From the NCBI GenBank assembly GCA_965242695.1, contig CBDESU010000002.1, positions 736,001 to 800,000 on the forward strand: a stretch of 64,000 nt of DNA. The letters run 5' to 3'. Of the stretch, positions 29,240 to 64,000 are shown in pieces. The stretch's first letter is position 1; each line of letters opens with the position of its first letter. The notes below the pieces were generated by a model, which saw nothing but the letters and a program-made list of their open reading frames with translations, did not search any database and was not told where the DNA came from. A program made the translations under genes and the position numbers. Source of the DNA: Cenarchaeum sp. Its GTDB lineage: Archaea > Thermoproteota > Nitrososphaeria > Nitrososphaerales > Nitrosopumilaceae.

Positions 29240-29241
29240 AG

Positions 29242-30040: not shown

Positions 30041-30790
30041 TTGGCAGGGCTCACGCAGGCGCAGGTCGACGGCCTCAACTCGACCATCCGCACCGCCGAC
30101 GAGGCCCTGCGGTGGGCCTCGGACAACCTCCACCCCCGGGTGGCCAAGGCGTCGAGCTTTGGGGCCGAGGATGCGGCCGTCACGGACATGATGGTGCAGA
30201 TCAACCCAAGGTTCAGGTTCTTCACGCTCGACACGGGTCGCCTGCCAAAGGAGACGTACGAGGCCATGGACGCCGTCCGCAAGAGGTACGGCATAGACCT
30301 AGAGGTGCTGTTCCCCGACGCGACAGAGGTCGAGGAGATGGTCCGCACCAAGGGCGTCAACCTGTTCTACGACAGCGTAGAGAACCGCCGGCTGTGCTGC
30401 GCCGTGCGCAAGGTCCACCCGACGGCCCGCATCCTCAAGACGCTCGACGGCTGGATAACCGGGTTGCGGCGCGACCAGACGCCCGACCGCGCCGACGCCC
30501 GCATGTTCGAGCTCGACGAGTCGCGCGGCGGTCTGCTCAAGATCAACCCCATCATAGACTGGTCGCTGGAGCGGGTTTGGGATTATATTAGGAGCCGCGG
30601 GGTTCCCTACAACAAGTTGCTCGACGAGGGATACCCCAGCATTGGCTGCGCGCCGTGCACGCGCGCAGTAAAGCCCGGCGAGGATACGAGGGCCGGCCGG
30701 TGGTGGTGGGAGCAGGACGACCACAAGGAGTGCGGCCTGCACGTGGGGCCGGCCGGGCAACTCGAGCGCGGGGGCGAGGGCAGTGGCTGA
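30041..30790 (+). CDS. cysH: adenylyl-sulfate/phosphoadenylyl-sulfate reductase (Fe-S, APS type)
   Basis: [46 protein letters not shown] start inferred from TTATAA at about 30012. Confidence 0.93.
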
Positions 30791-48549: not shown

Positions 48550-48948
48550 GGGGGGCGGGCCGCGCAGCCCGATATAAAACGGTGCGTCGCCATTGGCGTG
48601 CCTGAGATCGGCACGTTCCGGCTAGATGGGTCGTTACCCTCGCCAACCCCCTTCTTTCCTGTATGAGTCATGGCAGGGTGCATTGTCGCTTGTGTGGAAA
48701 TATAAGGCGAACTTGATCGGCCTGTCGGCAGAGCTCTGTCGTTTACCCTGGCGAATCTCACGTCTGCGTCAACGTCTTCCTAGGTTCACACTTGGCTTCT
48801 GCGCCGCACCGCTCATTTTACGCCCTCGTATTTCTTAGACTAAAAAACTACTCATGCATTCTAACCCACACACTTCAGGCGATTTGCGCGCAACGGAGGA
48901 GAAGGGGTGCAGATATTGTTCTGCATTGCCGTGCTTGTGACTGGCGTG

Positions 48949-49803
48949 TCAGAGATTCCAGTCATTCACAAGCTCGTCAACGTTCTTTTTGCCCAGAAAA
49001 TAGGACCCGTCCTTTAAGGCGAACCGTACTTGGTACCCTGCTTTATTCTTGGTTATGCTTCCATCTTTAATCCTGTTTTTCATTTCTTTGTTAGAAATAG
49101 TGATATATTTGATAACGTTGTTGCGATTACGAAGGACAAAGATATAGTACACATTTGGGCCGCTTGCTCTTTCGAACGCCTCTGGTCTAATTGTAATGAC
49201 GAAAGTTTTACCATCTTTACCTTCAGTCACAGTCTTAACTTGGATTTCGTACACATTCTTGCCCTTGGTGGCTCTTATGTCGATACCGCTATCGATTGTA
49301 ATGCGATCTGCGTTGTAGCCGCGCAGTAGCAGCTCGCTCATCACCCTGAACTCGCCGGCAGCGCCGATCCTCCTCTGATGATCTTTCCCGCCCGACTTGC
49401 CGATCTCTTCGCTGTCTTGGCCCCCGCCTGGCTTGATCGCTCCCATTGTCTGCCCGTCGCGATCATCCGGCGTCTTGTCGGTAGATGGTACGGTGTGCTC
49501 TCCTGCTCCCGTCCCACCGCCTTGGTCGTCGTTGCCCGACAGGGGCGCGTCCACGCCGCTCAGCTTGAACAATCCGGGTCCATCCTTGGCGAACCTTGAG
49601 CGCCCGCGTGCTATGTCGGTGTACAGCATGGCTCCCATGGTCGTCGCTGGAGTATCGCCCTTGGTCGTGATCCTACATGTCTCCGACGCCCTCTCGAGTA
49701 TCTCGGCAGCAGTGAGGGACTTGCCGGCCTCCTGTAGAACTGCATAAGCGGCATCACGATACTTCGACACGACGAGCGGGCGCCCGCGGTCTGCTATATG
49801 CAT
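48949..49803 (-). CDS. HARE-HTH plus PD-(D/E)xK nuclease fusion
   Basis: YRDAAYAVLQEAGKSLTAAEI...GDTPATTMGAMLY...F...GPGLFKL (HARE-HTH); IGAAGEFRVMSELL...GIDI...EIQVKT (nuclease). Start uncertain. Confidence 0.78.
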   Translation of the reverse strand: MHIADRGRPLVVSKYRDAAYAVLQEAGKSLTAAEILERASETCRITTKGDTPATTMGAMLYTDIARGRSRFAKDGPGLFKLSGVDAPLSGNDDQGGGTGAGEHTVPSTDKTPDDRDGQTMGAIKPGGGQDSEEIGKSGGKDHQRRIGAAGEFRVMSELLLRGYNADRITIDSGIDIRATKGKNVYEIQVKTVTEGKDGKTFVITIRPEAFERASGPNVYYIFVLRNRNNVIKYITISNKEMKNRIKDGSITKNKAGYQVRFALKDGSYFLGKKNVDELVNDWNL

Positions 49804-49888
49804 TGCCTCGTCCTCGACCCCGCGCGCCGCCGACCTTCCCTCCCAGTGTGGGAGGGGCACGTGCAGGGGTGCACGGATGGTCCTCGAC

Positions 49889-49995
49889 CCCGCTCCCCCC
49901 TCGACCCCGCCGCGACCGATCGCCCTGCTCACCAGCGTCAGCGTCATGTCGTTCGCCTCCCGCTCCCCCCTCGACCCCGCCGCGACCGATCGCCC
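49889..49995. repeat. 37-bp direct repeat x2, 70-bp period
   Basis: CCCGCTCCCCCCTCGACCCCGCCGCGACCGATCGCCC at 49889 and 49959; partial copy at about 49811. Confidence 0.85.
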
Positions 49996-50035
49996 GCCCG
50001 CAACGCTTAATAGCGCGCCGCCTAGGCCGCGCCGC

Positions 50036-51214
50036 ATGGCATACGGCGGCAGCGGCGCCCCCCGCGGCCCCGCCCAGGTCTCCATACTAGTGCCGACCTA
50101 CAACGAGTCGCAGAACATCGTCGGGCTGCTCCGGTCGGTCGCCGAGCACCTCCCAAAGAACCTCCGCGTCGAGACGATCGTCATAGACGACAACTCGCCC
50201 GACGGGACGGGCCGCATCGTAGAGGACTACATCCGCAACGTCCAGCGGGCCGCCAACCACGCCATCGGCATAGTCCACCGCAGGGCCCGCGAGGGCCTCG
50301 GCTCGGCCATACTAAAGGGCCTGCAGCACTCGACGGGCAGCTCTATCGTCGTCCTAGACAGCGACTTTTCCCACCCGCCGAGCCTCATACCAAAGCTCAT
50401 CGAGGCCATCCGGCGCCCCCACTGCGACATAGCCGTCGCCTCGAGGTACGTAGAGGGCGGGGCCGTAAAGGGCTGGCCGCTGCGCCGCAAGTTGCTAAGC
50501 CGCGTGGCCACCCGCATAGCAAAGACCGGCCTGGGCGTAGAGCAGGACGACCCGATGTCCGGATTCTTTGCCTTCAAGAAGAGCGTCGTGGCCGGCCTAA
50601 AGCTCGACGGCCTCGGCTACAAGATGCTCCTCGAGATACTCGTAAAGGCGCGCGGCGCGAGCGTCCTCGAGATACCCTACACGTTCACGGACAGGCGCGC
50701 CGGCAGCAGCAAGCTCGGCGCCGGGACGGTCCTGGACTACGGCCGCTCCGTGTGGAGGCTGTACCGGTACGGCAAGAGGGAGAAGAGGGCCCCCGAGGAG
50801 CACCGCTCCGTCCGGTTCGTCTCGAAGGCGGCGCGGTTCTACACGGTCGGCGCGCTCGGGCTGCTCGTAAACTACGCCCTCTCGCTGCTGTTCGCCGGCG
50901 CGCTCGAGCAGGTGTGGTACCTGCACGCCAACCTAGTCGGCATTGCGGCCTCGATGACGTCGAACTTTGCGCTCAACAAGTACTGGACGTTCGAGGACCG
51001 CGACTTTTCGCTGCGCCACACCGCATCGCAGTACGGCAAGTTCGTCCTGTTCAGCTCGGCAGGCGCGCTCGTCCAGCTCGGCATGGTGTACGGCTTGGTC
51101 GAGGCGTACTCGGTGCCGTACCCGGCCGCGCTCGTCCTCGCCGTCATGACGGCCGCGTTTGGCAACTTTGTGCTAAACAAAAGGTGGACGTTCCGCGAGA
51201 GGCTGTGGTCCTGA
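50036..51214 (+). CDS. dolichol-phosphate mannosyltransferase-like GT2 with C-terminal GtrA domain
   Basis: VPTYNES, IDDNSPDGT, LDSDFSHPP, DPMSGFF, DRRAGSSKL; GtrA motif NFALNKYWTF. Confidence 0.92.
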   Translation: MAYGGSGAPRGPAQVSILVPTYNESQNIVGLLRSVAEHLPKNLRVETIVIDDNSPDGTGRIVEDYIRNVQRAANHAIGIVHRRAREGLGSAILKGLQHSTGSSIVVLDSDFSHPPSLIPKLIEAIRRPHCDIAVASRYVEGGAVKGWPLRRKLLSRVATRIAKTGLGVEQDDPMSGFFAFKKSVVAGLKLDGLGYKMLLEILVKARGASVLEIPYTFTDRRAGSSKLGAGTVLDYGRSVWRLYRYGKREKRAPEEHRSVRFVSKAARFYTVGALGLLVNYALSLLFAGALEQVWYLHANLVGIAASMTSNFALNKYWTFEDRDFSLRHTASQYGKFVLFSSAGALVQLGMVYGLVEAYSVPYPAALVLAVMTAAFGNFVLNKRWTFRERLWS

Positions 51215-51300
51215 CCGCGGCGGCGCAGGGGAGGGGCCGGGGCCGCGGCTCCCCCACCGCCCGCCAAGAAAAACAAAAGAGGGCCGCGGCGGCGCCGCGG

Positions 51301-51969
51301 CTATTCGTACGTGGTGCCCGTCGACGACGCCGCCGCGTCCGATGCCAGGCCAGTCGGGGTCGGCACGGAGGGGAACCGCGCTCCGATCTGCTGCTCGGCG
51401 ACCGCGCTGGCCTCCTGCAGGATCTTGTCGGTCTCCTCGCTCGACATGTCCGACTCCATGCTGAACGAGTCGCCGGCTAGCGACTCCATCATCAGGCCGT
51501 TGAGCGTCTGCGTCATCGAGCTCATCTCGGCGTCGGCCTCCGGCATGAACTTGCCGAGGGACGACTTGAGGCCCTTCATCGTCGTCATGGCCGGCCCGAT
51601 GGCTACCATGGCGTCGCCCAGGTCGTGTATGGTCGTGAGCCTGAGCTGGACCTGCTCGAGTGACATCCTCGCGTTGCTGAGCATCTTCGTGACCTTGCGT
51701 ATCTCGGCGAGCTCGTTGGAGAGCACCTTGCTGGCGCTCGTGTCGTGCTGCTGGAGGGCCGTCACGACCCGCTGGAAGAGGCGCTGGTCCCTCTCTCGCA
51801 GCTTTGCCAGCATGGCGTCCATCTTGCTAGTCTGTATCTGCAGCTTGTTCACCGCAGTCTGGATGCGCGGCTTGAGCGCTCCCTGGGGCCTGACGGCCTC
51901 TTGGAGCTTTGTCGTCATGCCTGGCCCCTCTTGTCGGGACCAGTTCTTGTCAAAGCTAGTCATGCCCAC
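51301..51969 (-). CDS. ESCRT-III/Snf7 family cell division protein, CdvB-like paralogue
   Basis: LKPRIQTAV...LSNELAEIRKV...LEQVQLRLTTIHDLGDAMV...ILQEASAVAE. Confidence 0.88.
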   Translation of the reverse strand: MGMTSFDKNWSRQEGPGMTTKLQEAVRPQGALKPRIQTAVNKLQIQTSKMDAMLAKLRERDQRLFQRVVTALQQHDTSASKVLSNELAEIRKVTKMLSNARMSLEQVQLRLTTIHDLGDAMVAIGPAMTTMKGLKSSLGKFMPEADAEMSSMTQTLNGLMMESLAGDSFSMESDMSSEETDKILQEASAVAEQQIGARFPSVPTPTGLASDAAASSTGTTYE

Positions 51970-52006
51970 GCCTGCCTCCGGCGCGCCTTAATCCGGGGGG
52001 TGCAAT

Positions 52007-52885
52007 TTGCTAGACATGGACGTAAATTTAGCTGACCTGGCGGGCCGCGCGATGGGCGGCGGCGGGGGCGCCGGCAGCGCCAGCGGGGGCGCCGGGGGCG
52101 GCTCCGGGGGCGTGGCCGTGTTCGACTCGGGCCTCGGCTCGCTGTCGGTCATACGGCGCATCAGGCGGGCCGTCCCGGCGGCGCCCGTCGTGTACCTGGC
52201 GGACACGGCCAACTACCCGTACGGTACGAGGTCGCCGCCCGCGCTGCGCCGCATCGTAGAGGGGCGGATACGCCTGCTCAGGGACAGGTTCAGGCCGGAC
52301 GTCATAGTAGTCGGCTCGATCACGCCGACCCTGCTGCTCCCCGACCTGTTCGCCGGCGGTGCCGTGGTCGGCGTGGCCCCGCCCCTGCGCCGCGCCGCAC
52401 GGGCCACTCGCACGGGCCATGTCGGCGTACTGGCCACGCGGTCCGTGGTGGGGCGCTGCCGTACCGGGGAGATTGCGGCGGGGCTGGAGGTGCCGGCCGG
52501 GGTGCGCCTGCACCCGATAGACGCATCGCCGCTCGTCGACCTGGTAGAGTCGGGGGCGTTCCTTGACGACGGGGAAGAGTGCGCCAAGAGGCTGGCCAGG
52601 CTCGGCCCCGTCCTGTCCGAGAACAGGATAGACTCGCTCGCGCTGTCGAGCACGCACCTGCCGTTCCTTGTCGAGCGGCTTGCCGAGGCGTTTCCGAGGG
52701 TGCGGCTTGCCGACCCCGGCGAGGATGCGGCCGAGGCCGTGCGCAGGCGCATCGGCGCAGGTGCGGGAGGGGCGAGCCAAAAAGAGGCGCCGATGCGGGT
52801 GTTCGCGTCCGGCGATCCCGTTCCGCTAGAGGGCAGGCTGCGCCGCCTCGGCGTGCGCGAAGCAGTGCAGCGGCTTGACGGCTAG
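52007..52885 (+). CDS. glutamate-racemase (MurI)-fold protein with both catalytic Cys replaced by Ser
   Basis: VFDSGLGSL, YLADTANYPYG, GVLAT; VGSITP and LSSTHLP where ACNTA and LGCTHYP are expected. Confidence 0.8.
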   Translation: MLDMDVNLADLAGRAMGGGGGAGSASGGAGGGSGGVAVFDSGLGSLSVIRRIRRAVPAAPVVYLADTANYPYGTRSPPALRRIVEGRIRLLRDRFRPDVIVVGSITPTLLLPDLFAGGAVVGVAPPLRRAARATRTGHVGVLATRSVVGRCRTGEIAAGLEVPAGVRLHPIDASPLVDLVESGAFLDDGEECAKRLARLGPVLSENRIDSLALSSTHLPFLVERLAEAFPRVRLADPGEDAAEAVRRRIGAGAGGASQKEAPMRVFASGDPVPLEGRLRRLGVREAVQRLDG

Positions 52886-53691
52886 GCCTTTGCCGTTGGG
52901 CTGTCCTTGCCAGAGGCCTTTCTGTACCCGTGGCTGAACTCCTTGTCGTACAGGCGCGAGAACTCGTAGGAACTGGGCCTTACGACGTCGCCTATTACGA
53001 CGATCGCCGTGCGCGTAATGCCGGCCGCCCGGGCCTTTTCGGCAATGTCGGCTAGCGTTCCCTGCACGATCTTTTCGTCGGGCCAGCTCGCGCGCTGGAC
53101 GACAGCGGCAGGAGTGTCCTTGGAGTAGCCGCCCTCCACGGCCTCCTTTGCTATGTTGCCGAGGAGGTGCACGCTCAGGTAGAATACCATCGTCGCGCCG
53201 TGCCGCGCCAGGTCGGCGACCGACTCGGCGCCGGGCACGGCCGTCCGCGACGGGGCCCTCGTCAGTATTATCGTCTGCGTCACGCCGGGCAGCGTCAGCT
53301 GCGCGCCGAGCGAGGCCGCCGCGGCCAGGAACGACGTCACGCCGGGCACCACCCTGCACTCGATTCCCGCGGACTCGAGGGCGTCGGTCTGCTCGCGGAG
53401 GGCGCCGTATATCGTGGGGTCGCCGTCGTGGAGGCGCACCACGGTGCGGCCGCCGGCGGCGCCGACGCGCAGCGCCTCCGTAATCTGCTCGCGCACCATC
53501 CCCGACGCGTCGCGCATTGCCGCCCCATCGCGGCACATGGCGAGTATCCCCTCGGGTATGAGCGAGCCAGAGTACACTACGGTGTCGGCCTCGCGCAGCA
53601 GCCGGGCGGCCCTGACCGTCATCAGCCCTGGGTCGCCGGGCCCGCAGCCGACGAACCACACCGTCCCTCCTTCCCGCGCGTCGCTAGGCAC
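52882..53691 (-). CDS. cobM: precorrin-4 C11-methyltransferase (CobM/CbiF)
   Basis: VGCGPGDPGL, YSGSL, RLHDGDPTIYGA, LTLPGVTQTIILTR, RASWPDE, SRLYD. Confidence 0.95.
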   Translation of the reverse strand: MPSDAREGGTVWFVGCGPGDPGLMTVRAARLLREADTVVYSGSLIPEGILAMCRDGAAMRDASGMVREQITEALRVGAAGGRTVVRLHDGDPTIYGALREQTDALESAGIECRVVPGVTSFLAAAASLGAQLTLPGVTQTIILTRAPSRTAVPGAESVADLARHGATMVFYLSVHLLGNIAKEAVEGGYSKDTPAAVVQRASWPDEKIVQGTLADIAEKARAAGITRTAIVVIGDVVRPSSYEFSRLYDKEFSHGYRKASGKDSPTAKA

Positions 53692-54409
53692 GCTTGACCA
53701 CCAGTATGGAAAAGTACTTTGATGCGAGCGAGCCGCCGGCGGCCTCGCCGAGCGTCATCTTTTGGATGATCTCCTTGTCGGTGCCCAGGTCCTGGCCTAT
53801 GGCGAACACAGAGTCGTCCGGGAACCCCGACTCGCGCAGCAGCGCGACTACCTGGTCAAAGTAGCGGCCGTCCTTGAGGAAGACGAGCGACTCTGCGTGC
53901 TTTGCCATCTCGGCGACCGACGAGAGGTCGTAGCAGGACGGTATGATGGCGACCTTTTCGGACCCCTCTGCTATGCTCACGCCGACCTTGGCGGCGAACG
54001 TGAACGGCGAGACTATGCCGGGCACTACGCTCACGTCCATGCCGGGGTGCCTCTTGCGTATGCGCCTCTGCATGTATATCCACGTGCTGTACAGGTGGGG
54101 ATCGCCTACCGTCACGTACACGACGCGGCGGCCGGCGAGGACCTTGTCGGCCATGGCGACCGCGTTCTCGTCCCATGTACGCCTGAGGACGTCCTCGTCG
54201 CGCGTCATCGGGAACACGAGCTTTACGACCTCCTTTTGGGACGTGTCGATCATGCCCGATATGATCGACAGCGCGATGCTCGGCCTGTCGGCGGCGGACG
54301 CGGGGCACATGACCGTGTCGGCGCTTTCGATGGCCCGCACTGCCCTGACCGTGAGCAGGTCGGCCTCGCCGGGGCCCACGCCTATCCCCGTCAGGCTTCC
54401 GGGCGCCAT
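53684..54409 (-). CDS. cobI: precorrin-2 C20-methyltransferase (CobI/CbiL)
   Basis: GIGVGPGEADLLT, FPMTRD, GDPHLYST, VPGI, YFS. Confidence 0.93.
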   Translation of the reverse strand: MAPGSLTGIGVGPGEADLLTVRAVRAIESADTVMCPASAADRPSIALSIISGMIDTSQKEVVKLVFPMTRDEDVLRRTWDENAVAMADKVLAGRRVVYVTVGDPHLYSTWIYMQRRIRKRHPGMDVSVVPGIVSPFTFAAKVGVSIAEGSEKVAIIPSCYDLSSVAEMAKHAESLVFLKDGRYFDQVVALLRESGFPDDSVFAIGQDLGTDKEIIQKMTLGEAAGGSLASKYFSILVVKRA

Positions 54410-54440
54410 ACCTGCGGCGCGGGCGGGCGCCGATTAAAAC

Positions 54441-55127
54441 CTAGGCTGCGCCGGCCGGTGGCTGCCCCGCCGTTGCCGGGGAGCCGGCCGCCCGCGTCGC
54501 CGACACTATGCCGACAGGGTTGCGCGCTAGCATCATCGTGCCCGTCGACGTCTGCCTGCCCTTTGCGACGATGAGCTGGGCCACGTCGATATCCTCGAAC
54601 GGGCCGCCGCGCAGGGCCTCGACCACGGCGGCGAGCGTCTCGACCTGCACCGTCCCCGCGACGATCCTGCCCGTACCGGGTGCTAGCTTTTCCGAGCACA
54701 GCCGCACGATCTCGGCCGTCGCGCCGCCGGTCCCCCCGATGATGGCCGCACCAATCCCGCCGGGCAGGCCCCGTATGGTATCGCGCGCATCGCCGGCCAC
54801 CACCTCGACGTTGGCTATTCCGAACCGCTCTAGGTTGCGGCCGGTCAGTGCTACTGCCTCGGGGTCGGAGTCGACCGCATAGACCCTGCCCGAGGGCCCA
54901 ACGCGCATCGCCGCCTCGACGGATACCGAGCCGCTGCCGCACCCGATGTCGTACACGGTCGCGCCCTCGTCGAGCCGCGCCTTGCTCAGCTGCACGGCCC
55001 TTGCCTCCTCCTTTGTTATCGGGACGGAGCCGGACCTCTCGAACATCTCGTCGGGTATTCCGGGGACGGCGTGCGGCCACCTAGTCTCGCCCGCCGTTTG
55101 GCCGTTCGGATCCACGGCCGCCACCAT
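54441..55127 (-). CDS. cbiT: precorrin-6Y C5,15-methyltransferase (decarboxylating), CbiT subunit
   Basis: GIPDEMF, PITKEE, DIGCGSGSVSVE, MLARNPV. Confidence 0.93.
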   Translation of the reverse strand: MVAAVDPNGQTAGETRWPHAVPGIPDEMFERSGSVPITKEEARAVQLSKARLDEGATVYDIGCGSGSVSVEAAMRVGPSGRVYAVDSDPEAVALTGRNLERFGIANVEVVAGDARDTIRGLPGGIGAAIIGGTGGATAEIVRLCSEKLAPGTGRIVAGTVQVETLAAVVEALRGGPFEDIDVAQLIVAKGRQTSTGTMMLARNPVGIVSATRAAGSPATAGQPPAGAA

Positions 55128-55130
55128 CCC

Positions 55131-55670
55131 CTACGGGATCGGCGAGGCGATGATCCCCGCCTCTGGCATGTTCACTAGCGTGTACGACACTATCCACATG
55201 AACAGGTACAGGAAGATGTAGCTGCCGATCCCCTGCGTGACGAGCTTTTTCCTGTCCGACGAAGGCAGGCGGATGTTCATCATCTTGCCGAATATGGCGG
55301 TGCCGATGAACACGACGATCATGAACCCTATCGAGGCCCACCGCCGCTCCTCGCCGGCGACCGGCTCGAAGATGAACGTTGCGGCTACGCCGGCGACGAC
55401 GGCCACGCCGACGCGCACCCAGAACAGCCTGCTGAGCTTTGCCTTTTGCGTCGGGTCGAGGGTCTCTCCCTGGCCGCCCGCCTTGCCGCCCTTCTTGGGG
55501 CCGGGCGGCGGCTCGGTCGGGGGGGCGCGCGAGGTGGGCCTTGCCGGGGGCGGCGGCGCGCCGTGGGGGTGCTCCTTGCCGCCTCCGTCGCCGCCCGCGG
55601 CCTCTGCCCCCTCTCTTGCCGGGGCCGTGTCCCGCGTCGGCTCCGACCTGCGCCTCTTGTGCTTGGCCAA
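55131..55670 (-). CDS. three-TM membrane protein, possibly EMC6-like
   Basis: Basic, Pro-rich N-terminus; three TMs ending GIGSYIFLYLFMWIVSYTLV; TTG start inferred from a TTAAA box. Confidence 0.65.
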   Translation of the reverse strand: MAKHKRRRSEPTRDTAPAREGAEAAGGDGGGKEHPHGAPPPPARPTSRAPPTEPPPGPKKGGKAGGQGETLDPTQKAKLSRLFWVRVGVAVVAGVAATFIFEPVAGEERRWASIGFMIVVFIGTAIFGKMMNIRLPSSDRKKLVTQGIGSYIFLYLFMWIVSYTLVNMPEAGIIASPIP

Positions 55671-56023
55671 GCTGTACGGCGCGCCGGGCCGCCGTGCTTG
55701 TTTAAGTGCTTTGAAGGGGGGCGCGCCGCGCGGCCCTGCGTACCGGCGCGGAAAGGGCCAATGGCGCACCGTGGATTTCACTCCGTTGGCTACGGCAGGG
55801 GCCGACCTTTGCCCAAGAAGGCCAAGAGGGTGGTTAATATACCCACAGAATTGCGGCCCCCCGACATGGCCTGCTTGGCTCGCGCTTGCAGTTTCCACAT
55901 AGGCGATCCCTTATGTACTAGTGGTGGGGCCGCCCGTATGGTTTCCATGACTTACGCTGACCCTCTTGGGCGTCCAAGCACACCGTCCACGGTTTCCACC
56001 CTCGCGCCCACGCCGACTCTAAC

Positions 56024-56037
56024 GGGGGGGGGGGGGG
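56024..56037 (+). repeat. G14 homopolymer upstream of the island operon
   Basis: ctaacGGGGGGGGGGGGGGcaaaa, about 125 nt before the first gene. Confidence 0.9.
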
Positions 56038-56160
56038 CAAAAATTGGAGCGTCACTGTTAGCAACATGTTAAACACCCAACACAGCCATACCGACACCAC
56101 TATAGTTACAACCCACAATGTCTGTGTCGTGGCCGAACTTTTCGATCGGGAGTGGTTGCC

Positions 56161-57987
56161 ATGCTTCTGAAGTGGACATTTCCGCCCACGGGTGGGGGTG
56201 TTGCACACGGTTTTAACGATAGTGCACAAGAGCACTTTAGAAATGACGCATGGAAGCATACCATACGAGAGCTAATTCAGAACTCTCTTGATGCTGTTCG
56301 CAACAAGGGCCAGCCAGTTGTTGTTGAGATATCGCTAATTGACGTGCCGTCAATCGAACTAGGTGCACTCGACCTTGCTAAACATGTAAAAGAAGCATTA
56401 AAACGAGCTAAAAAACAGGGCGAGAAACACGGCGAAAAATTCTATACTGATGCATTAAAGATTTTGAAAAGAAAGAAAATTAAAACACTAGCAGTAAAAG
56501 ATGCAAACACCACGGGTCTTATTGATGGAAAATGGAGTGCCCTAGTATTCAGCGAAGGGGCCACTGATAAAGGTGGCATGAGTGCAGCCGGCGGGAGTTT
56601 TGGAATAGGTAAAAGCGCCCCCTATTTAGTGTCTGAACTTAAAACTGTATGTTACTCTACGTACTACGCCCGGCCTGGAAGAGAGGAACGATTTATTGCG
56701 CGCTGCAAGCTAATCGCACACAATGATCCACAGGGACGAGACGGTGAGCTTCAACACATTGGATTCGGTACGAAAGGAAGAGTCCAGCGTAACAAACGCC
56801 CGCACCCCACACGAGGTCAAAACATCTACAGTGACTTTCGACTTGGTGGTATTGGCAGTGGCATATTTATCGCTGGATTTAATCCATTATCAAAAGATTG
56901 GCTAAAGGTTGCCGAAAAATCCATTGCAGAGAGCTTTTTTGAGGCAATACATACAGAAAAGTTAAGCATAAAGTTAGATGGTCAATTAATAACACGCGAT
57001 ACGCTTGATGAAATTTTTGATCAAGATCCAGATAACGATTCGTCGTACTACTACCATGTAATCCGAGGCGATCCCAATGTAAAAACTGAATATATCAAGA
57101 CGGACTTAGGGGAGTTTACTCTAAAGTTCTATATCGGGCAAGATGGAATGCCAAACCGAATTGCTTATGTCAACAGGAGGGGCATGCTAGTTACAGACAC
57201 AAGACAGCGTAATAAAAATCCCTTTCACAAAGCAGTAGGTCGAGGCTGGGCCAAGTACGTGGCAGTTGTCACGGCTTCAAATGATGAAACAGATACAAAA
57301 ATACGTGAAATGGAGCCTCCCAACCACGGTACAATTGAACCCGGCCGCATCATTGATCCTGTTAGGCGTGACGAAATGGAAGCAGCACTGGCCAGTATAA
57401 GGGAGAAAATTGCTACGGTAATAGGTGATGCACTGCGGCTTAGCATCCAAGACCAAGAGATTAACGTATCTGAACTCGCAGGGATCATACCAATTGATGG
57501 GGACAACAGTGATGGTAAGGACGAAGAAAGTCAAAACGACGAAGTCGAGCTTAAGGTTCGAAAGCTCAAAGCACCAACACCTGGAGAGAGCTATACTGAG
57601 CAGAAAGGTCCAAGTAAAGGTCGGGGATCAACCGGTAAAAAGCGTGGCAAAAAACGTGAACAGAAAGAAGAACGTACCGGGGCACTTAATAAAATACGTA
57701 TAATGCGCATCGATGACAAGATGCGAGTGGCATTTACACCCACAGCATCTATGGAAGATATTCGCTTTTTGATTAGGCCCGCAGGTGAAGAGCGAATGCG
57801 AGAGCATGCTATTACGATTAGTAAGGCTAGAGCATTACACAGCAACACTTCTGTTCGTGCAGACGGCAAAACCGTGATCGTCTCTCCTCAAAATACAGAT
57901 AGGATAACAATGGATCTTACAGTGGGTAAGGCTAAAGCATACACAGGATATGAAATAGCCTGTGTTTCTCAGGAGGAGCAAAAATGA
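56161..57987 (+). CDS. GHKL (HATPase/MORC-like) ATPase
   Basis: RELIQNSLDA (N box), VKDANTTGL (G1), GGSFGIGK (G2), EPPNH. GGGAG before ATG 56161 (alternative GTG 56152). Confidence 0.82.
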   Translation: MLLKWTFPPTGGGVAHGFNDSAQEHFRNDAWKHTIRELIQNSLDAVRNKGQPVVVEISLIDVPSIELGALDLAKHVKEALKRAKKQGEKHGEKFYTDALKILKRKKIKTLAVKDANTTGLIDGKWSALVFSEGATDKGGMSAAGGSFGIGKSAPYLVSELKTVCYSTYYARPGREERFIARCKLIAHNDPQGRDGELQHIGFGTKGRVQRNKRPHPTRGQNIYSDFRLGGIGSGIFIAGFNPLSKDWLKVAEKSIAESFFEAIHTEKLSIKLDGQLITRDTLDEIFDQDPDNDSSYYYHVIRGDPNVKTEYIKTDLGEFTLKFYIGQDGMPNRIAYVNRRGMLVTDTRQRNKNPFHKAVGRGWAKYVAVVTASNDETDTKIREMEPPNHGTIEPGRIIDPVRRDEMEAALASIREKIATVIGDALRLSIQDQEINVSELAGIIPIDGDNSDGKDEESQNDEVELKVRKLKAPTPGESYTEQKGPSKGRGSTGKKRGKKREQKEERTGALNKIRIMRIDDKMRVAFTPTASMEDIRFLIRPAGEERMREHAITISKARALHSNTSVRADGKTVIVSPQNTDRITMDLTVGKAKAYTGYEIACVSQEEQK

Positions 57988-58823
57988 CCCGCGATAAGCT
58001 CCTCCTGCCTCATCCGGTGCTACGACCGGGCGGCGGACTGGATTACAACGAAAGCTGCAATTTTGGGCTGGAAATAAAGCCTGGAGCCTCTAGACGTACA
58101 TCGGAAGGGGTCGTAGAAATTAAAGCATCATTCACGCTTGTTAGCCCTACTTTAGAAGAGATGGTAAAGGAGGGCAAGGCTCAGTACCTTGTATTGGCGA
58201 CATGCGCAAAAACATACTATCGACTTGCAACATCTTTTGATGTCCAACAAATATTGCTAGAATTTCCTGTTAAAAATTTGGCTGGTACTCTTCGATTAAC
58301 ACCTTATATTGTAACAACTAAAGAAATAGAGTGGTTTATTGCACCAGAACACGATCCTGAAATAAAAATATTTCAAGGATTTGGCAAGATCCCGCCAGGA
58401 TCAATACTTGCCATAGGTGCCCCGCACGAAATTGAAATGGAACAAATTGGGACTGTTATGTCTGCAATAAAACTGGTTCCAAACGCAAACATTATGGAAG
58501 GGCGTTACACAATAAACGATGAAGGTGATTTTATAATGATTGAACTAAATAATAAAACATACACAGATATTGCACGCATGAGGACCCACATAAAAAATCT
58601 ACTCTACCCTTCTATCTATCAGGCAGCTATTGAGTATGCCCTACGTAAAGCTACTGAAGAAGCAGATAGTAAGTGGGCCAAAGCTTTACAAAAAACGCTA
58701 GAAGAACATGGTCTTAGTAACGATAATATTGAAGAAAAAGCGAATGAATACGCCCAAATAATAATGGGGGACCCGTTAGGGCAAATGCTCGAATGGTGCA
58801 ACAGGAGTGTTTCATTTGACTGA
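57984..58823 (+). CDS. hypothetical protein, partner of the GHKL ATPase
   Basis: 279 aa; PHPVL N-terminus, PGSILA; ATGA overlap and AGGAGG Shine-Dalgarno. Confidence 0.8.
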   Translation: MTRDKLLLPHPVLRPGGGLDYNESCNFGLEIKPGASRRTSEGVVEIKASFTLVSPTLEEMVKEGKAQYLVLATCAKTYYRLATSFDVQQILLEFPVKNLAGTLRLTPYIVTTKEIEWFIAPEHDPEIKIFQGFGKIPPGSILAIGAPHEIEMEQIGTVMSAIKLVPNANIMEGRYTINDEGDFIMIELNNKTYTDIARMRTHIKNLLYPSIYQAAIEYALRKATEEADSKWAKALQKTLEEHGLSNDNIEEKANEYAQIIMGDPLGQMLEWCNRSVSFD

Positions 58824-60513
58824 CACCATACGGCTACATAGGCTCACCGGTGATGCATTTGTGAGTTTGCGTAACTATGCGAGCAACCACCCTGATGCTT
58901 ATTGTGACCCTAATGCCGACTTTGGGAAGATTCTTGAATCATGTTGTGATAAAAGCTATTCAAACCCTGTAAACATTACCCTAGATTCTGCCCTGTCCCT
59001 AAAGGAACCACTAGAATATAGTAAAAGCAATGCCAAACGTCATCTTGCAGACAAACAAGCTTTAGATTTCTATAAATCTTTGAAGGGCATGACGCCCAGA
59101 CTGGCCTCTGATCCTTATATTTTAGCCTACATAAACCACTTTTATCTTCATAAATATGGTATCCAGAGATGGCCTATAAGTAAAGAAAAACAGGCGCCAG
59201 CCACTGAGCAAGCGGCACCTACATCGACTAGTGCGCCATTAGGACTGAGCAAGAGAGCATCTCACATTCGGCTACACTGGTTGACCTCTAGTAACCAGCG
59301 TCAACAGATATGGAATGCCAGTATTGCTGGCCGTACATGGTGGATTGCACATGTAGCGATTAAAGCGGCTGATGCTTCAGGAGGGGCCTTTACAGCTAAA
59401 GATGCGTTGGATCTTTTTGCGGAGACGCCCGAGTATTACCACAGAACAATGGAGTATGTAGTTCTCAGGAATCCAGTTCTCCTAGCAGAGTGTGTCCGCG
59501 CACTAATGAATGAAGCTCGTGGGATTAATCGCAGTGGATATAGAGAAATGGGAATGGAACTAAACCGTGAAGCCGGCGCGCGAGTGCTTGATTCACTTAA
59601 CCGAAACGACCTACGAAGGCTTGTTCATCGATCTGCCGATCGTCTTATGCGCATGAAAGACTACGTAAACGATCGCCATCACCTCGTTGGTGTCGACAAG
59701 TTCAATGTACTTAGCCTCGGGGCAGGCGCACAATCGACGGTGCTTGCACTCATGGCAGAGGAGGGGTGGGAAGGCTTAGAAAAACCCGATCTCGCGATAT
59801 TCGCTGATACGCAATGGGAACCACGTGCGGTGTATGATCACCTAAAATGGCTTAAGAGCCAATTGTCCTATGAGGTAGTTACGGTTACGGCCGGTGACAT
59901 AAAAGACAACATGCTTCACGGCGTCAACCCTGATGGTGACAAGTTCCTTGACGTACCGGTATTCTTACGCAATGCGGACGGAACTAAGTCCGTGGCAGCT
60001 AGGCAATGCACCACTCACTACAAAATAATACCCATACACAAAGAAATCCGAAAAAGACTTAAAATCCCTGCTGGCAAGCGTGTTCCTAAAGACGTCCAAG
60101 TCGTGATGTGGTTAGGAATAAGCGCAGACGAGTCAACTAGAATGAAGCCTAGCAGGGATGAATGGATAGACAACCGATACCCGCTAGTTGAGATGAGCAT
60201 GACTCGAGCCGATATATACAAGTGGTTTGGAGATCGCTACCCTGATCGACATCTACCCCGCAGTGCTTGCGTGGGTTGCCCGTACCACGACGATATGGAG
60301 TGGAAATGGATCAAGGACAACGAACCCGAGTCATTCAAGGATGCTGTGAACATTGATTGGTCTTTGCGCAATGTGCCTGCCGCACGTGGTTCACTACGCG
60401 GGGAGGCATACCTACACAAGTCGAGAATGCCGCTAAGTGACATTGACTTTTCGCAAACTCGTGACTATGATGACTACATGGCAACTGAATGTGAGGGGTT
60501 GTGCGGTGTCTAA
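58807..60513 (+). CDS. DUF6339-like domain fused to a PAPS-reductase-like (PP-loop) Cys-rich domain
   Basis: N-half: ASDPYILAYINH...RW...GRTWW...LNREAGARVLDSL. C-half: LSLGAGAQST, FADTQWE, RQCTTHYKIIPI, GISADESTR, SACVGCPYH, ECEGLCGV. Confidence 0.75.
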   Translation: MFHLTDTIRLHRLTGDAFVSLRNYASNHPDAYCDPNADFGKILESCCDKSYSNPVNITLDSALSLKEPLEYSKSNAKRHLADKQALDFYKSLKGMTPRLASDPYILAYINHFYLHKYGIQRWPISKEKQAPATEQAAPTSTSAPLGLSKRASHIRLHWLTSSNQRQQIWNASIAGRTWWIAHVAIKAADASGGAFTAKDALDLFAETPEYYHRTMEYVVLRNPVLLAECVRALMNEARGINRSGYREMGMELNREAGARVLDSLNRNDLRRLVHRSADRLMRMKDYVNDRHHLVGVDKFNVLSLGAGAQSTVLALMAEEGWEGLEKPDLAIFADTQWEPRAVYDHLKWLKSQLSYEVVTVTAGDIKDNMLHGVNPDGDKFLDVPVFLRNADGTKSVAARQCTTHYKIIPIHKEIRKRLKIPAGKRVPKDVQVVMWLGISADESTRMKPSRDEWIDNRYPLVEMSMTRADIYKWFGDRYPDRHLPRSACVGCPYHDDMEWKWIKDNEPESFKDAVNIDWSLRNVPAARGSLRGEAYLHKSRMPLSDIDFSQTRDYDDYMATECEGLCGV

Positions 60514-60847
60514 TCTGACAAATTTTCTCACGAGAGATTTTATGTCGTTTGGCCATGGTTGCCACGAGGTGATTGATCCTGGGCCGGGATTGTATGCAAT
60601 GTGGTTGCGCGGCCAGTGCATATACGTGGGAATGAGCGAGGATCTTCACAGACGCATTTTTCAGCATGTGGCCTCCGAGGACAACCAGGATCTTGCCAAT
60701 TATTACCGACAATTTCCTGGCGAGATTCGAATAGCTATCGTGCACGTGGATGCCAAAGCAGATCAACTCCGTCGACTTGAGTCTGAGGCCATTGAAAAAC
60801 TCCGACCTATCGTTAACAAGCGTGGTGGAGGTGGCACACGGCAATGA
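60506..60847 (+). CDS. minimal GIY-YIG nuclease
   Basis: GLYAMW...IYVGMS..LHRRIFQH...ESEAIEKLRPIVN; GTG overlaps the upstream stop. Confidence 0.82.
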   Translation: MSNLTNFLTRDFMSFGHGCHEVIDPGPGLYAMWLRGQCIYVGMSEDLHRRIFQHVASEDNQDLANYYRQFPGEIRIAIVHVDAKADQLRRLESEAIEKLRPIVNKRGGGGTRQ

Positions 60848-62154
60848 CCAGCTGTCATCCTGCACTTCGAGGAAAATTCGGGAAAACAGAATATTTTTTG
60901 ACCGTTATGCCGGTAGGCGATCTGGTAAACCGCGTGAAATTTCCTGTTGAGATGCCGGAATGGAAAGAGTATACTATCGAAGAACGCTACCAGCGTAGCC
61001 TTAATATGAAACGCATTATAGAAGAAATGGCCCCGTACTTTGCTCAAGACGATAACCGGTTCACGGGTTCGTTAGTCTTGGCCGTCCAAAATGATGAAAA
61101 CATGGAGTTTGAGCACCTGTCTAAGCTAACGGGAGACTTGGGCGCACTTCCTACCATGTACAAGAGTGCTTCGTCCGAAATGGGGTTTGTTGTCATGTCT
61201 GGGCAAGAAGTACTAGTTCCACTAGATGGGCAGCACCGTGCCAAGGCGTTCAAGATGGCTATTGAAGGCCACGCCCGAAACGATCGTGAACCTCCCGTGA
61301 TACTACCCAACGTAAGTTTTGCTCGCGATATGGTGGCGGTAATACTTGTGCGTTTTGACAAAAAGCTATCACGATACATATTTAACAAGATTAATCGCTA
61401 TGCTAAACCAACCGTCAAGGGGGACAAACTAATCACCGATGACGATGACGCAGTTGCAGTCATGACTCGGGCTCTGATAAGAGACGGTGTGATCCCTGCT
61501 AGGCTAGTCAAGGTTAGCGGTAATACACTCAACCTACGTGCGATCGAATTTACAACACTATCTACTTTCTACGAAGCGAATAAAAAACTCGTCTCAGCAT
61601 TGCCGATTCCTCTTGCGGACAAGCCAGAAAAAATGAATTTAGGTGAACGAGAAAAACGCCTTAAGGAGCTTCAAATTGAGTGGAGGCGTCTATTGTCTGG
61701 TGTCACAGAATGGAAAAGAGCACTTACCGCCTCTGATCAAGGTGGAGACGCGACGCGGATCAAGTTGCGTGAAATTTCCTTGCTTGCCAGGCCCGTTGGG
61801 CAGGCAGCCTTAATTAATGGCTATACATTGGCATGTATGAAAGACAGAACTCGTGCAGACAAAGATGAGCTGGTGGCAAGGATCAATAAGATAGATTGGG
61901 GTGTCAAAGCAGAGCTGTGGAAGGGTTTGCTGGTAGGTCCAAATAACAAAATATTCTCTAGCATGCCTGCAGCTAGGAACGCAGGCTTGATGACTGCACA
62001 CATGATCGGTATCGCATTGACCCGTAAGGAAAAGGAACGCGTCATAAAATTTGTCTACGGTAATGCTTCTATGAACCGCAATTTGCCCAAGCCTATAGCA
62101 CTTTCCCGCTACGAACTAGACGAACATAAGCAACAAGCAAGGGATGGTCTATAA
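60844..62154 (+). CDS. dndB: DGQHR-domain / DndB-family protein
   Basis: YQRSLNMKRI, RFTGSLVLA, PLDGQHRAKA, IFNKINRYAKPT; GGAGGTG Shine-Dalgarno and ATGA overlap. Confidence 0.88.
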   Translation: MTSCHPALRGKFGKTEYFLTVMPVGDLVNRVKFPVEMPEWKEYTIEERYQRSLNMKRIIEEMAPYFAQDDNRFTGSLVLAVQNDENMEFEHLSKLTGDLGALPTMYKSASSEMGFVVMSGQEVLVPLDGQHRAKAFKMAIEGHARNDREPPVILPNVSFARDMVAVILVRFDKKLSRYIFNKINRYAKPTVKGDKLITDDDDAVAVMTRALIRDGVIPARLVKVSGNTLNLRAIEFTTLSTFYEANKKLVSALPIPLADKPEKMNLGEREKRLKELQIEWRRLLSGVTEWKRALTASDQGGDATRIKLREISLLARPVGQAALINGYTLACMKDRTRADKDELVARINKIDWGVKAELWKGLLVGPNNKIFSSMPAARNAGLMTAHMIGIALTRKEKERVIKFVYGNASMNRNLPKPIALSRYELDEHKQQARDGL

Positions 62155-62352
62155 GCGCTGATGCCAGACCCTTGCATTGCCGTTGATAGACCCGCGTCAA
62201 TGCCCGACATTTCGTGGGCGGTGATGTTGATCTAAGCAAGGCACGACTGCGACGTTGTGGCCGCATTATGACTAACCTTTTGTAAACCTGAACCCGAGCT
62301 GTCCCACCCTACGCCCCACAACAGTTATTATCGCACGCGCTCCGTGCCGTGC

Positions 62353-64000
62353 ATGAACATAGCAGGCATCGAGCTGCGCTACCTGACATCCTCGCTCAAT
62401 GAGAAGACCATGGGGTACTACGTGAGCAACATCTACGGCGTCTCGCGGCAGAGCCTCCTGCTCAAGCTGCACCACCCGGACAAGCCCGACATCATGCTCA
62501 TGTTCTCGACCATGGGCCTGTGGGAGAGCGCCGTGCGCATAGGCCAGATCGAGCCGAACAGGCTGCTCGCCCGCCTCCGGCGCGACCTTGCCAGGCTGCG
62601 CGTCGAGGCCGTCGAGCAGCCCGGCACCGAGCGCATGGCGTACGTGCGGTTCGGCGGCTTTGGGCGCGAGCGCGTGCTCGCCGGCGAGTTCTTCGGCGAC
62701 GGCAACATAGTGCTGTGCGACGGCGACATGAAGATACTCGCGTTGCTCCACTCGCTCGAGGTGCGGCATCGAAAGCTCGCAGTAGGACTTGAGTACGTGC
62801 CTCCTCCTCCGAACAGCGCCGACGTCCTTGCAATTACGGGCGGGCAGCTCGGCGAGGCGCTTCGGAGCGCGGGAGGCGCCGGCGGCGGCAGCCGCCTGCA
62901 GGCCGACCGCTGGCTCGGGCGCACCCTGGGCCTGCCGGCCAGGTACGTCGGGCGCATGCTAGAGCTTGCCGAAATAGATCCGGCCGCTCCGTGCTCGGGC
63001 CTGTCGGATGCAAGCCTTGACGCCATAGCAGAATCTGTGCGGAAGATTGCCGGCGACGTTGCCGCCGGCCGCCACGATCCGGCCGTCGTCGCGTCAGGCG
63101 GAACAGGAAGCGGCGGCGCAGAGGTGCACCCCGTCGTGCTGTCCGGCAAGCCGGAGGCTGAAGGTAACCTGCGCACCCCTCTCGGCACGTTTGAGGAGGG
63201 CTTGGATCGCCTGTTTACCGAGCAGATACTAGAGGCCGGCAGGGCCGGCCAGTCTAGCGGCTCGGACTCGCGCATCGGCGAGCTGCGCGCGCAGATCAAG
63301 GACCAGACTGACGCGGCGGCAGCCGTCCGGGAAAGGGCGGCGAGGATATCGTCGCTCGCCGGGGCCCTCCAGGCAACGGCCGCATCGGCCCGGTCCCTGT
63401 CCGATCCCGCCGCCGCGGGCATCCTGGCGGGGCACGGCGCCGAGCGGCTCTCCGACAGGGGCGCCCCCGTCGTACAGGTAGCAGGCGTGCGCATTGCGGT
63501 GGATCCCGCCGCATCGCTGCACTCGACCGCATCGCGCCTGTACGACGAGGCCAAGCGCCAGTCGGCTGCGGCCCCGCGCATCGAGGCGCTGCGCAAAAAG
63601 GCCGAGCGGCGGCTGGCCGAGCTGCAGGACCGCTCAGAGGCCGAGCGCCAGTCCGTCACATTCACCGAGGTCCGCAAGAAGGCGTGGTACGAGAGGTACC
63701 GCTGGTTCTTTACGACCGGCGGCCTGCTCGCCGTAGGCGGCCGCGACTCGTCGTCGAACTCGTCGATCATACGCAAGCACCTCGAGCCCGGAGATGCCGT
63801 GTTCCACGCCGAGGTAGGCGGCTCGCCGTTCTTTGTCCTAAAGGGGGCGCTCGCGCGGGGCCGGCCGGCGCAGCCGCAGCAGCAGGGCCGGAGGCACCAC
63901 CGGGAGGAGCAGGCGCGCGACGCGGCGGCCGCCACAACGGCCGCGGCGGCCGCATCGGCGCAGTCTAGCATCGAGGAGGCGGCCCACGCGACGGTCTGCT
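62353..64000 (+). CDS. rqcH: NFACT/Rqc2 (RqcH) ribosome quality-control protein, 3'-truncated
   Basis: Read directly from the DNA: MNIAGIELRYL...YYVSNIYG...EFFGDGNIVL...WYERYRWFFTTGGLLAVGGRDSSSN...FHAEVGGSPF. Missing from the ORF track because there is no stop in the window. Confidence 0.9.
   Translation, partial: MNIAGIELRYLTSSLNEKTMGYYVSNIYGVSRQSLLLKLHHPDKPDIMLMFSTMGLWESAVRIGQIEPNRLLARLRRDLARLRVEAVEQPGTERMAYVRFGGFGRERVLAGEFFGDGNIVLCDGDMKILALLHSLEVRHRKLAVGLEYVPPPPNSADVLAITGGQLGEALRSAGGAGGGSRLQADRWLGRTLGLPARYVGRMLELAEIDPAAPCSGLSDASLDAIAESVRKIAGDVAAGRHDPAVVASGGTGSGGAEVHPVVLSGKPEAEGNLRTPLGTFEEGLDRLFTEQILEAGRAGQSSGSDSRIGELRAQIKDQTDAAAAVRERAARISSLAGALQATAASARSLSDPAAAGILAGHGAERLSDRGAPVVQVAGVRIAVDPAASLHSTASRLYDEAKRQSAAAPRIEALRKKAERRLAELQDRSEAERQSVTFTEVRKKAWYERYRWFFTTGGLLAVGGRDSSSNSSIIRKHLEPGDAVFHAEVGGSPFFVLKGALARGRPAQPQQQGRRHHREEQARDAAAATTAAAAASAQSSIEEAAHATVC

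Follow-up and report, generated by a model that had tools for sequence, protein, structure and literature searches.

A DUF6339 domain fused to a PAPS-reductase-like enzyme in a low-GC operon of Cenarchaeum sp., a candidate DNA writer of a restriction-like defence system

We analyzed a stretch of 64,000 nucleotides from Cenarchaeum sp. (assembly GCA_965242695.1, contig CBDESU010000002.1, positions 736,001 to 800,000), hereafter the window, in which one open reading frame (ORF) joins a DUF6339 domain to an enzyme domain resembling phosphoadenosine phosphosulfate (PAPS) reductases. The fusion is the third gene of an operon of five co-directional genes, preceded by a GHKL-like ATPase (protein A) and a protein B and followed by a GIY-YIG nuclease and a DndB-like DGQHR protein. 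On balance, sequence and gene context lean toward a restriction-like defence system in which the fusion enzyme is the DNA "writer" that marks self. That the mark would specifically be a phosphorothioate is a more tentative proposal, made by analogy with known systems. The island and its genes are as follows:

55950..62250, low-GC island with the five-gene operon, delimited by GC contrast
56152..57987, + strand, protein A, GHKL-like ATPase (PDC-M33A), 611 aa; PADLOC PDC-M33A, 3.8e-84
57984..58823, + strand, protein B (PDC-M33B), 279 aa; PADLOC PDC-M33B, 3.7e-29
58807-60513, + strand, fusion ORF, a single ORF with a GTG start, 568 aa
58807..59676, + strand, DUF6339 domain (PDC-M33C), fusion residues 1-290; Pfam and PADLOC
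59677..60513, + strand, PAPS-reductase-like PP-loop enzyme with five invariant Cys, fusion residues 291-568; phrog_424, SspD profile and structure matches
60437..60847, + strand, small protein with a GIY-YIG nuclease domain, at most 136 aa (translation may begin further downstream)
60844..62154, + strand, DndB-like DGQHR-domain (ParB-superfamily) protein, 436 aa; Pfam DndB, 1.5e-32

The fusion junction is genuine and no assembly artefact. Logan contigs from 4 runs and 2 studies, some of the runs possibly being the window's own source sample, covered positions 58700-60600, and 4 records bridged the junction near 59677 with 0 gaps. The sole mismatch over this interval was C>A at 60171, in one run. 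The check across the junction that had been proposed in the preliminary description of this DNA thus revealed neither a stop nor a frameshift, the contigs of the four runs being without indels. The single 568-aa ORF reported there was likewise upheld by the ORF call and by relatives of full length, for which a word-indexed search gave 609 matches; the 120 listed ranged from 503 to 567 aa, with 48-83% identity and 92-100% query coverage. DUF6339 (Pfam PF19866) was present in 120/120 of them, and the few named in their source records were called "DUF6339 family protein" or "hypothetical protein". The AlphaFold model of the whole fusion had a predicted local distance difference test (pLDDT) of 87 and a predicted template modelling score of 0.76, with a C-terminal tail at pLDDT <50. 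At window 59180-59260 (fusion residues ~125-150), the DUF6339 domain also contains an Ala-, Pro-, Thr- and Ser-rich insertion of ~20 residues, modelled at pLDDT <50; it was present in the window protein and its closest relative and absent from the 17 other aligned homologues.

The predicted structure of the C-terminal half places it in the PP-loop/PAPS-reductase fold class, in agreement with what had been read from the letters. Its structure matches included PAPS and adenosine phosphosulfate (APS) reductases (Z 10.4-11.7, root-mean-square deviation 3.4-4.3 Å over 165-183 residues), from which the [4Fe-4S] sulfur transferases LarE, NcsA and TtuA and the ATP-pyrophosphatase domains of GMP synthetases (Z ~10) were statistically indistinguishable; Foldseek E-values were 2e-3 or weaker. 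TdpC, DndC and SspD were absent by name among the 50 structure matches listed, which leaves their presence possible. The best profile match was phrog_424 "PAPS reductase" (7.3e-43), and this match, together with the 50 phage records described below, confirms the earlier suggestion of a subtype found in phages. The sole PADLOC match at E<=10 was SspD (PDLC02782; 6.2e-16, 56.9 bits), a 277-position profile without a curated cut-off that was covered from position 3 to 200. The threshold of Pfam PAPS_reduct (PF01507) was not reached (13.5 bits vs. 22.5), and the NCBIfam models for CysH, APS reductase, PAPS reductase, CysD and DndC (TIGR03183) gave no match at E<=1. The BrxP and PADLOC DndC profiles were silent at E<=10, a level at which HMMER filters may drop very weak matches, and a PDB sequence search with the enzyme-family profile found nothing at E<=1.

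The fusion ORF carries HHLVGVDKFNVLSLGAGAQST, RQCT (residues 399-402), ACVGCP (487-492) and CEGLC (562-566). In an alignment of 83 enzyme domains, comprising fused and unfused ones plus two phage proteins, G305, G307, Q309, S310, D334-T335, R399, C401, K406, E442, C488, C491, C562 and C566 were identical in 83/83, and S303 of the PP-loop in 81/83. These include the five Cys and most of the variant PP-loop singled out in the preliminary description. With no catalytic residue varying among the 83 domains, one and the same chemistry is to be expected throughout. Compared with the phage proteins of phrog_424, the enzyme shares 31-43% identity over 88-99% of the domain and has its catalytic residues in common with the two that were aligned, whereas the phage and plasmid proteins stand alone at ~265-300 aa.

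The window has a metabolic reductase of its own, followed by a sulfate adenylyltransferase gene:

29987-30790, housekeeping CysH; NF002537 270.9 bits (cut-off 154), TIGR02055 260 bits (cut-off 235.3)

The fusion family showed no significant similarity to this CysH (hhalign E 0.25) and, as stated above, matched no CysH model, so that the two are as unlike as first thought. The same non-significant alignment lines up SLGAGxQS with SFGAED and DTxWEP with DTGRLPKE, also pairs RQCTxHYKxxP with a stretch of that CysH, and sets C401 against the CC motif of the window APS reductase. CysH-type proteins remain the nearest solved fold and have an analogous order of DT motif, RQC, CxxC and Cys-bearing C-terminal tail; the fusion enzyme differs from them in its non-significant sequence similarity and its non-metabolic context, with the true CysH elsewhere in the window.

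The N-terminal half is DUF6339, as the preliminary description held (Pfam PF19866, 63.3 bits vs. a cut-off of 23.2, 3.1e-17, residues 86-273; PADLOC PDC-M33C, 1.2e-16, residues 10-281). Its AlphaFold model, folded alone, is mostly helical (pLDDT 89.3). Foldseek found no match for it (best E 1.4) and a wide VIA search only generic helical bundles (best Z 5.9, residues 200-290), so that structure searches with this model show neither a known nor a new fold. Protein B belongs to no recognizable family in Pfam, NCBIfam or, beyond PDC-M33B, PADLOC, and its atlas matches are "hypothetical protein" clusters only. In complex predictions, DUF6339 docks on protein B with high confidence: the interface score ipSAE was 0.85, 0.83 and 0.85 in three runs, with 0.01 for the best control. 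The same mark was reached by 58/80 solved complexes and 2/110 mismatched pairs, a calibration that holds only roughly here because the alignments were user-made. The runs shared at least 83% of their contacts, the partner had a pLDDT of at least 80, and the predicted interface involves the conserved stretches 96-102 and 257-264 of the N-domain and includes the invariant R80 of B. This predicted binding recasts DUF6339 as a docking subunit instead of a DNA reader. Its suggested role as a possible DNA-recognition domain found nothing in its favor, neither in Foldseek nor among the bundles of Z <=5.9.

Protein A displays motifs in GHKL order (R39-E40..Q43-N44..D47; D117..T120.G122; G148-S149.G151.G153-K154), and its N-box, G1 and G2 were conserved at >=90% in 40 homologues. 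A comparison with a cluster bearing HATPase_c_3 gave an hhalign probability of 75% (E 2.5e-5, 60 columns, residues 107-170). Pfam and NCBIfam gave no match, a PDB sequence search nothing but a chance nanobody match, and the ESM atlas unnamed "hypothetical protein" clusters only. We named it GHKL-like because the Pfam and PDB sequence searches were silent. The small GIY-YIG protein exceeded the Pfam GIY-YIG cut-off (6.2e-6, 26.9 bits vs. 22.6, residues 53-127), and a GIY-YIG gene 3' of the enzyme also occurs in loci L001-L003 and in the unfused GIY-YIG/DndB class described below. The DndB-like protein contains the motif DGQHR in its translation and passed the NCBIfam DGQHR-domain cut-off (95.1 bits vs. 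58.85) but not that of the DndB equivalog TIGR03233 (70.9 bits vs. 328); a PDB sequence search yielded chance matches only. Stops and starts overlap throughout (A-B by 4 nt, B-fusion by 17 nt, fusion-GIY-YIG by up to 77 nt, GIY-YIG-DndB-like by 4 nt), indicating that the five genes form one translationally coupled operon.

To see how the two halves travel, we confirmed 561 stretches of species-representative contigs as relatives and analyzed the best 80 as loci, calling and clustering their ORFs and annotating cluster representatives. The fused protein was found in 35/80 loci, with homologues of A and B upstream on the same strand in 35/35. Within ~6 kb of these fused loci there was a GmrSD/SspE-like gene in 12, a DndB-like gene in 6 and a cassette of helicase, GHKL ATPase and phospholipase D (PLD)-like nuclease in 4; in L026 the fused gene directly precedes this helicase cassette. 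Another 8/80 loci had A, B and DUF6339 with a separate enzyme gene, L033 among them resembling a disrupted fusion. DUF6339 and the enzyme were separate adjacent genes behind A and B in seven loci (L070, L074, L075, L076, L078-L080), the separate-ORF status being confirmed in L074 and L075, which means that the DUF6339-enzyme partnership also exists unfused. In 10/80 loci the enzyme was followed by GIY-YIG and/or DndB-like genes only, in 22/80 by a superfamily 2 (SF2) helicase, a HATPase_c_3 GHKL ATPase and a PLD-like nuclease, and the remaining 5/80 had other architectures. As an observation on the helicase cassette (L041-L073, e.g., L054 8001-12438 and L073 8001-10077), a stand-alone enzyme heads the four genes, the SF2 helicase is of ResIII/DEAD type, the GHKL protein has a weak MzaB match and the PLD-like nuclease a weak DrmC match. 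No PADLOC system profile covered this four-gene cassette as a whole.

A maximum-likelihood tree of 81 enzyme domains (quick search, midpoint rooting, five long-branch rows, with the SH-like approximate likelihood-ratio test, aLRT, as the only support) had clades that match the architectures. The fused proteins formed a clade (aLRT 97) of 36 rows, with a disrupted copy in addition, the split class with the enzyme beside A-B-DUF6339 one of 7 rows (aLRT 100), the GIY-YIG/DndB-only class had aLRT 96-99, and the helicase-cassette class comprised 23 rows (aLRT 99). Architecture labels required 6 changes on the tree, compared with a minimum of 4 and with 39.5 for shuffled labels. With a constant enzyme co-diversifying with swappable cassettes, the family behaves like the modification arm of restriction-modification (R-M) systems.

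When the enzyme domain was searched exhaustively on its own, 4163 clusters (50% identity) reached E<=0.001 and 1181 reached 1e-30. Among the best 150 of these representatives, 13 were of fused length and most others were stand-alone proteins of 250-310 aa. With 13/150 of fused length but 609 full-length relatives, the fusion is a minority architecture and yet a large, old lineage itself; it deserves the label "unusual" that it was first given as a minority form of the enzyme family, less so as a lineage in its own right. Close relatives of the N-domain that stand alone are rare, with 17 short proteins in a word-limited search. Stand-alone enzyme homologues occurred in 50 phage records, where they lie in replication or early regions, and in 196 plasmid records, 110 of them from Agrobacterium. 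At or beside the match in plasmid copies (e.g., H41 and H60) lie a DNA cytosine methyltransferase and proteins with P4 alpha zinc-binding and zincin-like metallopeptidase domains. The plasmid stand-alone copies may have a role in plasmid establishment or anti-restriction.

The adjacent co-directional genes of the window match the PADLOC profiles PDC-M33 A, B and C in the order A-B-C, "PDC" being a designation that we take to mean an untested candidate system. The A-B-DUF6339 triplet is also carried by plasmids of Ligilactobacillus, Lactococcus, Planococcus, Arthrobacter and Paenarthrobacter. Six plasmid loci had an A homologue followed by a B-sized gene, and the next gene was annotated DUF6339 in 5/6; this gene encodes ~250-270 aa where apparently intact and measures 345 nt in L103. 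The window operon agrees with these canonical loci in all three profiles and in gene order, and differs in that its C protein bears a 278-aa enzyme at the C-terminus and is followed by the GIY-YIG and DndB-like genes. A hypothetical ORF of ~60-80 aa lies just upstream of A in 5/6 plasmid loci (L083, L084, L103, L104 and L106) and may be a regulator. A DNA methyltransferase was found within 6-7 kb in 5/6 plasmid loci, upstream or downstream and on either strand, and had its own type II endonuclease in 3/6. The earlier statement that DUF6339 proteins accompany GHKL ATPases next to methylases thus held, in this small sample, for the GHKL-like partner and for a nearby methylase, but not for a set position. 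With the methylase on either side or strand and with its own endonuclease in three loci, there is no fixed "methylase slot". Of the idea that a writer occupies that slot, the writer role fits all the context evidence, while the slot itself does not stand.

The context of the fusion also recalls systems of DNA phosphorothioation. In 5 loci (L010, L017, L018, L024 and L025) the fusion has PbeA/PbeC homologues as neighbors, and no homologue of DndC, DndD or DndA (E<=1e-6, with queries from the host dnd-pbe cluster) was found in the 80 loci. DndB-like, Pbe and GmrSD/SspE neighbors without a Dnd writer are the typical surroundings of a phosphorothioate system and thus speak for a writer role of the enzyme. 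The host genome has a canonical dnd-pbe cluster of archaeal type elsewhere (G000 contig C1 1466000-1505800; L097 and L098), with DndB-like, DndC, DndD, DndA, PbeA and PbeC genes and a second, inverted DndC/DndD pair ~20 kb away; the two DndC genes scored 479.6 and 494.3 bits. Given this island, the fusion would be an additional PAPS-reductase-type system in the genome. The genome also has nine Aminotran_5 matches, so that sulfur donors are available in trans.

Published work describes each of the characterized PAPS-reductase homologues that act on DNA (DndC, SspD and BrxP) as a phosphorothioate writer, and BrxP, a fusion of a PAPS reductase with DUF4007, makes phosphorothioate with BrxC (PMC12914056, PMC12839542). 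Like BrxP of BREX type 4, our protein is a PAPS-reductase-like enzyme fused to a non-catalytic, system-specific module in a defence operon of several genes, with the methyltransferase replaced. The fusion partner here is DUF6339 whereas that of BrxP is DUF4007, and the BrxP profile, silent on our enzyme, does match the host DndC. The operon has no BrxC, PglZ or BrxL, none of its genes matching a Brx profile, and the ATPase that it encodes is GHKL-like, not of P-loop type. SspD is the sole defence profile that matches the enzyme, and SspE-like GmrSD genes follow the fusion in 12/35 loci; the match is partial, however, and no SspA, SspB (DUF4007) or SspC profile was found among the five operon genes. 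DndC belongs to the same superfamily, the operon has a DndB-like gene and five related loci have Pbe-like restriction neighbors, but DndC measures ~470-510 aa compared with ~280 aa for the enzyme, whose PP-loop reads SLGAGxQS and which leaves TIGR03183 unmatched. For the Tdp system, passages citing it state that one gene, TdpC, suffices and that the DNA intermediate is adenylated (PMC12914056). Compared by that description, single-protein phosphorothioation would suit the stand-alone phage and plasmid copies of the enzyme.

Evasion of Dnd with the help of a phage PAPS reductase is reported, by citation, in PMC13551039, and three sources leave phage PAPS reductases unexplained, as metabolic genes or possible DNA modifiers (PMC11437467, PMC13551039, bioRxiv 10.64898/2026.02.18.706556). 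Two other leads were dropped. The anti-Dnd protein JSS1_004 is a kinase/shutoff protein and irrelevant here, and the MADS system, as introduced in PMC13662399, consists of P-loop/Toprim modules, methyltransferases and kinases, with nothing there tied to DUF6339. Literature searches found nothing linking PAPS reductase with MORC and restriction, and, among the papers listed for DGQHR, PAPS reductase and GIY-YIG, nothing that describes the window operon.

From these elements we infer a DNA substrate, sulfur chemistry, iron-sulfur (Fe-S) binding and a defence function, and the following mechanism can be proposed. The variant PP-loop and the DT motif of the enzyme would be the binding site for ATP or for an adenylated DNA phosphate. 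Sulfur would come from a putative Fe-S cluster on C401, C488 and C491, acting with the flexible ECEGxC tail at the C-terminus. The sulfur nucleophile could then attack the AMP-activated phosphate, leaving a phosphorothioate-type DNA mark. Proteins A, B and C would form an ATP-driven restriction or surveillance complex that reads or enforces the mark. The main role of DUF6339 would be to dock on B, the fusion perhaps holding writer and reader in one particle, and the GIY-YIG and DndB-like proteins would be accessory, acting in nicking, site access or regulation. A bolder version is possible, although we hold it as rather speculative: the short "PAPS reductase" shared by phages, plasmids and the fusion would be a self-sufficient DNA modifier that works without an ATPase of the DndD/SspC/BrxC type, installs a phosphorothioate or another mark by way of adenylation, and is bolted through DUF6339 to a GHKL-ATPase complex.

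Several observations weigh against a writer role, or against phosphorothioate as its mark. A P-loop or ABC ATPase (DndD, SspC or BrxC) is required in Dnd, Ssp and BREX-4 (PMC12914056), and the operon has none of this type, only the GHKL-like ATPase. A cysteine desulfurase, an enzyme often supplied in trans (PMC12914056, PMC12839542, PMC12707154), is missing from the island. Adenylation by the domain is uncertain, its PP-loop being the degenerate SLGAGxQS and not SGGxDS. With 56.9 bits over 200/277 profile positions, SspD is no more than a modest match, and the DndC and BrxP profiles are silent; no nuclease domain was recognized in A or B by Pfam, PADLOC, NCBIfam or the atlas, and a second phosphorothioate writer is less obviously needed in a host with dnd-pbe. 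GmrSD-like and DndB-like genes accompany other DNA modifications too, and neighbors in defence islands can be coincidental. Finally, our literature search found no paper on DUF6339 or PDC-M33, and supplements of phosphorothioate/BREX surveys (PMC12914056, PMC10853773, PMC12839542) may already list this architecture.

Among the alternatives, the one that survives best, and which we nevertheless regard as unlikely, is that the PP-loop domain modifies a protein or small molecule rather than DNA, adenylating or conjugating A, B or a nucleotide. The QueC-like Cap9 modifies its CD-NTase in CBASS, and the Cap9-CdnD complex was among the structure matches of the enzyme (9nto_B, Z 9.8). The enzyme is tethered through DUF6339 to the predicted partner B, and the N-domain structure searches recognized no DNA-binding domain in the fusion. 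However, an enzyme with identical residues stands alone, without A, B or DUF6339, in the 50 phage and 196 plasmid records, and its recurrent partners (DndB-like, GIY-YIG, helicase and PLD nuclease) are DNA-directed. Stand-alone copies and differing cassettes make a system-specific protein substrate unlikely.

Slightly less probable still is an enzyme that acts as the effector, attacking invader DNA or draining ATP after sensing by A-B-C and so stopping replication. As no other effector or nuclease domain was recognized in A or B and 29/35 fused loci have no DndB-like gene nearby, the three-gene core must, on this account, hold the active principle. The phage and plasmid copies, which lie in the early or replication regions of their own carriers, suggest protection rather than self-harm, the five invariant Cys in an APS-reductase-like layout point to sulfur chemistry over simple ATP hydrolysis, and in 22/80 loci the enzyme lies upstream of dedicated nuclease cassettes. 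It is very improbable that the enzyme belongs to ordinary sulfur metabolism, as an assimilatory sulfonucleotide reductase or an auxiliary gene fused by chance to a neighboring ORF: PAPS/APS reductases are its nearest solved folds (Z 10.4-11.7), the motif order resembles theirs and phage copies are routinely annotated PAPS reductase (bioRxiv 10.64898/2026.02.18.706556), but the CysH, APS, PAPS and CysD models are unmatched at E<=1 where the window's own CysH passes two cut-offs, and the gene sits in a foreign low-GC defence operon whose partner and recurrent neighbors are defence- or DNA-related. A DNA writer remains the reading that we favor.

The island that carries the operon is of foreign origin and was acquired horizontally. 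Its GC content is 0.42-0.50 over 56000-62000 compared with 0.66-0.73 on either side, i.e., an island of ~45% GC in a genome of ~69% GC. Strong matches were found in 2/4 congeners, 1/20 other genomes of the same family and 0/16 genomes of other families among 40 host relatives, and this patchy distribution, together with the GC contrast, points to horizontal acquisition. The rRNA operon of the host genome was best fitted by archaeal models (small-subunit rRNA 1450.5 bits, full length, with the archaeal large-subunit model alongside). We found no tRNA within 48000-64000, no direct repeats flanking the island, and no excess of promoter-like or terminator-like counts over shuffled controls. On its left side the island borders on high-GC host sequence, and a run of 11-12 G (56026-56037) lies at this edge, ahead of the start of gene A. 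One run labelled as sponge metagenome matched just 0.20 of the sampled words, and we make no habitat claim from it.

Immediately upstream of the housekeeping cysH there is a second low-GC island (window 26000-29952, GC 0.40-0.43), which is probably a type II R-M system with an extra nuclease. A stretch of lowered GC at 48-50 kb (0.52-0.60) may be a third foreign insertion. Their genes are:

26112-27635, - strand, 507-aa protein with NucS/Shedu-like nuclease and DUF5655 signals, second low-GC island
27833-29239, + strand, N6/N4 DNA methylase, second low-GC island
29233-29952, + strand, MvaI/BcnI-family restriction endonuclease (1.2e-45), second low-GC island
48949-50085, - strand, 378-aa HARE-HTH protein (HARE-HTH 3.2e-12), in the stretch at 48-50 kb

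The architecture of the window joins modification-restriction of the PAPS-reductase-based kind with the uncharacterized partners DUF6339/PDC-M33. To our knowledge, systems with PAPS-reductase homologues (Dnd, Ssp, BREX type 4 and Tdp) are the sole known route to DNA backbone modification. The locus ties a fifth branch of the PAPS-reductase family to a candidate system with a GHKL ATPase, and gives both a testable role. Cassette swapping around one writer would offer a clean natural experiment in how R-M systems are assembled, and the enzyme could possibly serve as a compact, single-protein tool for DNA marking. In phages and plasmids it is usually read as a gene of sulfur metabolism, and knowing its mark would settle a recurring annotation puzzle. 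If it were indeed a self-sufficient modifier, it would define a fifth, mechanistically distinct sulfur-based R-M system, and its 1181 clusters (E<=1e-30), in which phage proteins often carry the annotation of a "cysH" auxiliary metabolic gene, would become genes for DNA marking or anti-restriction.

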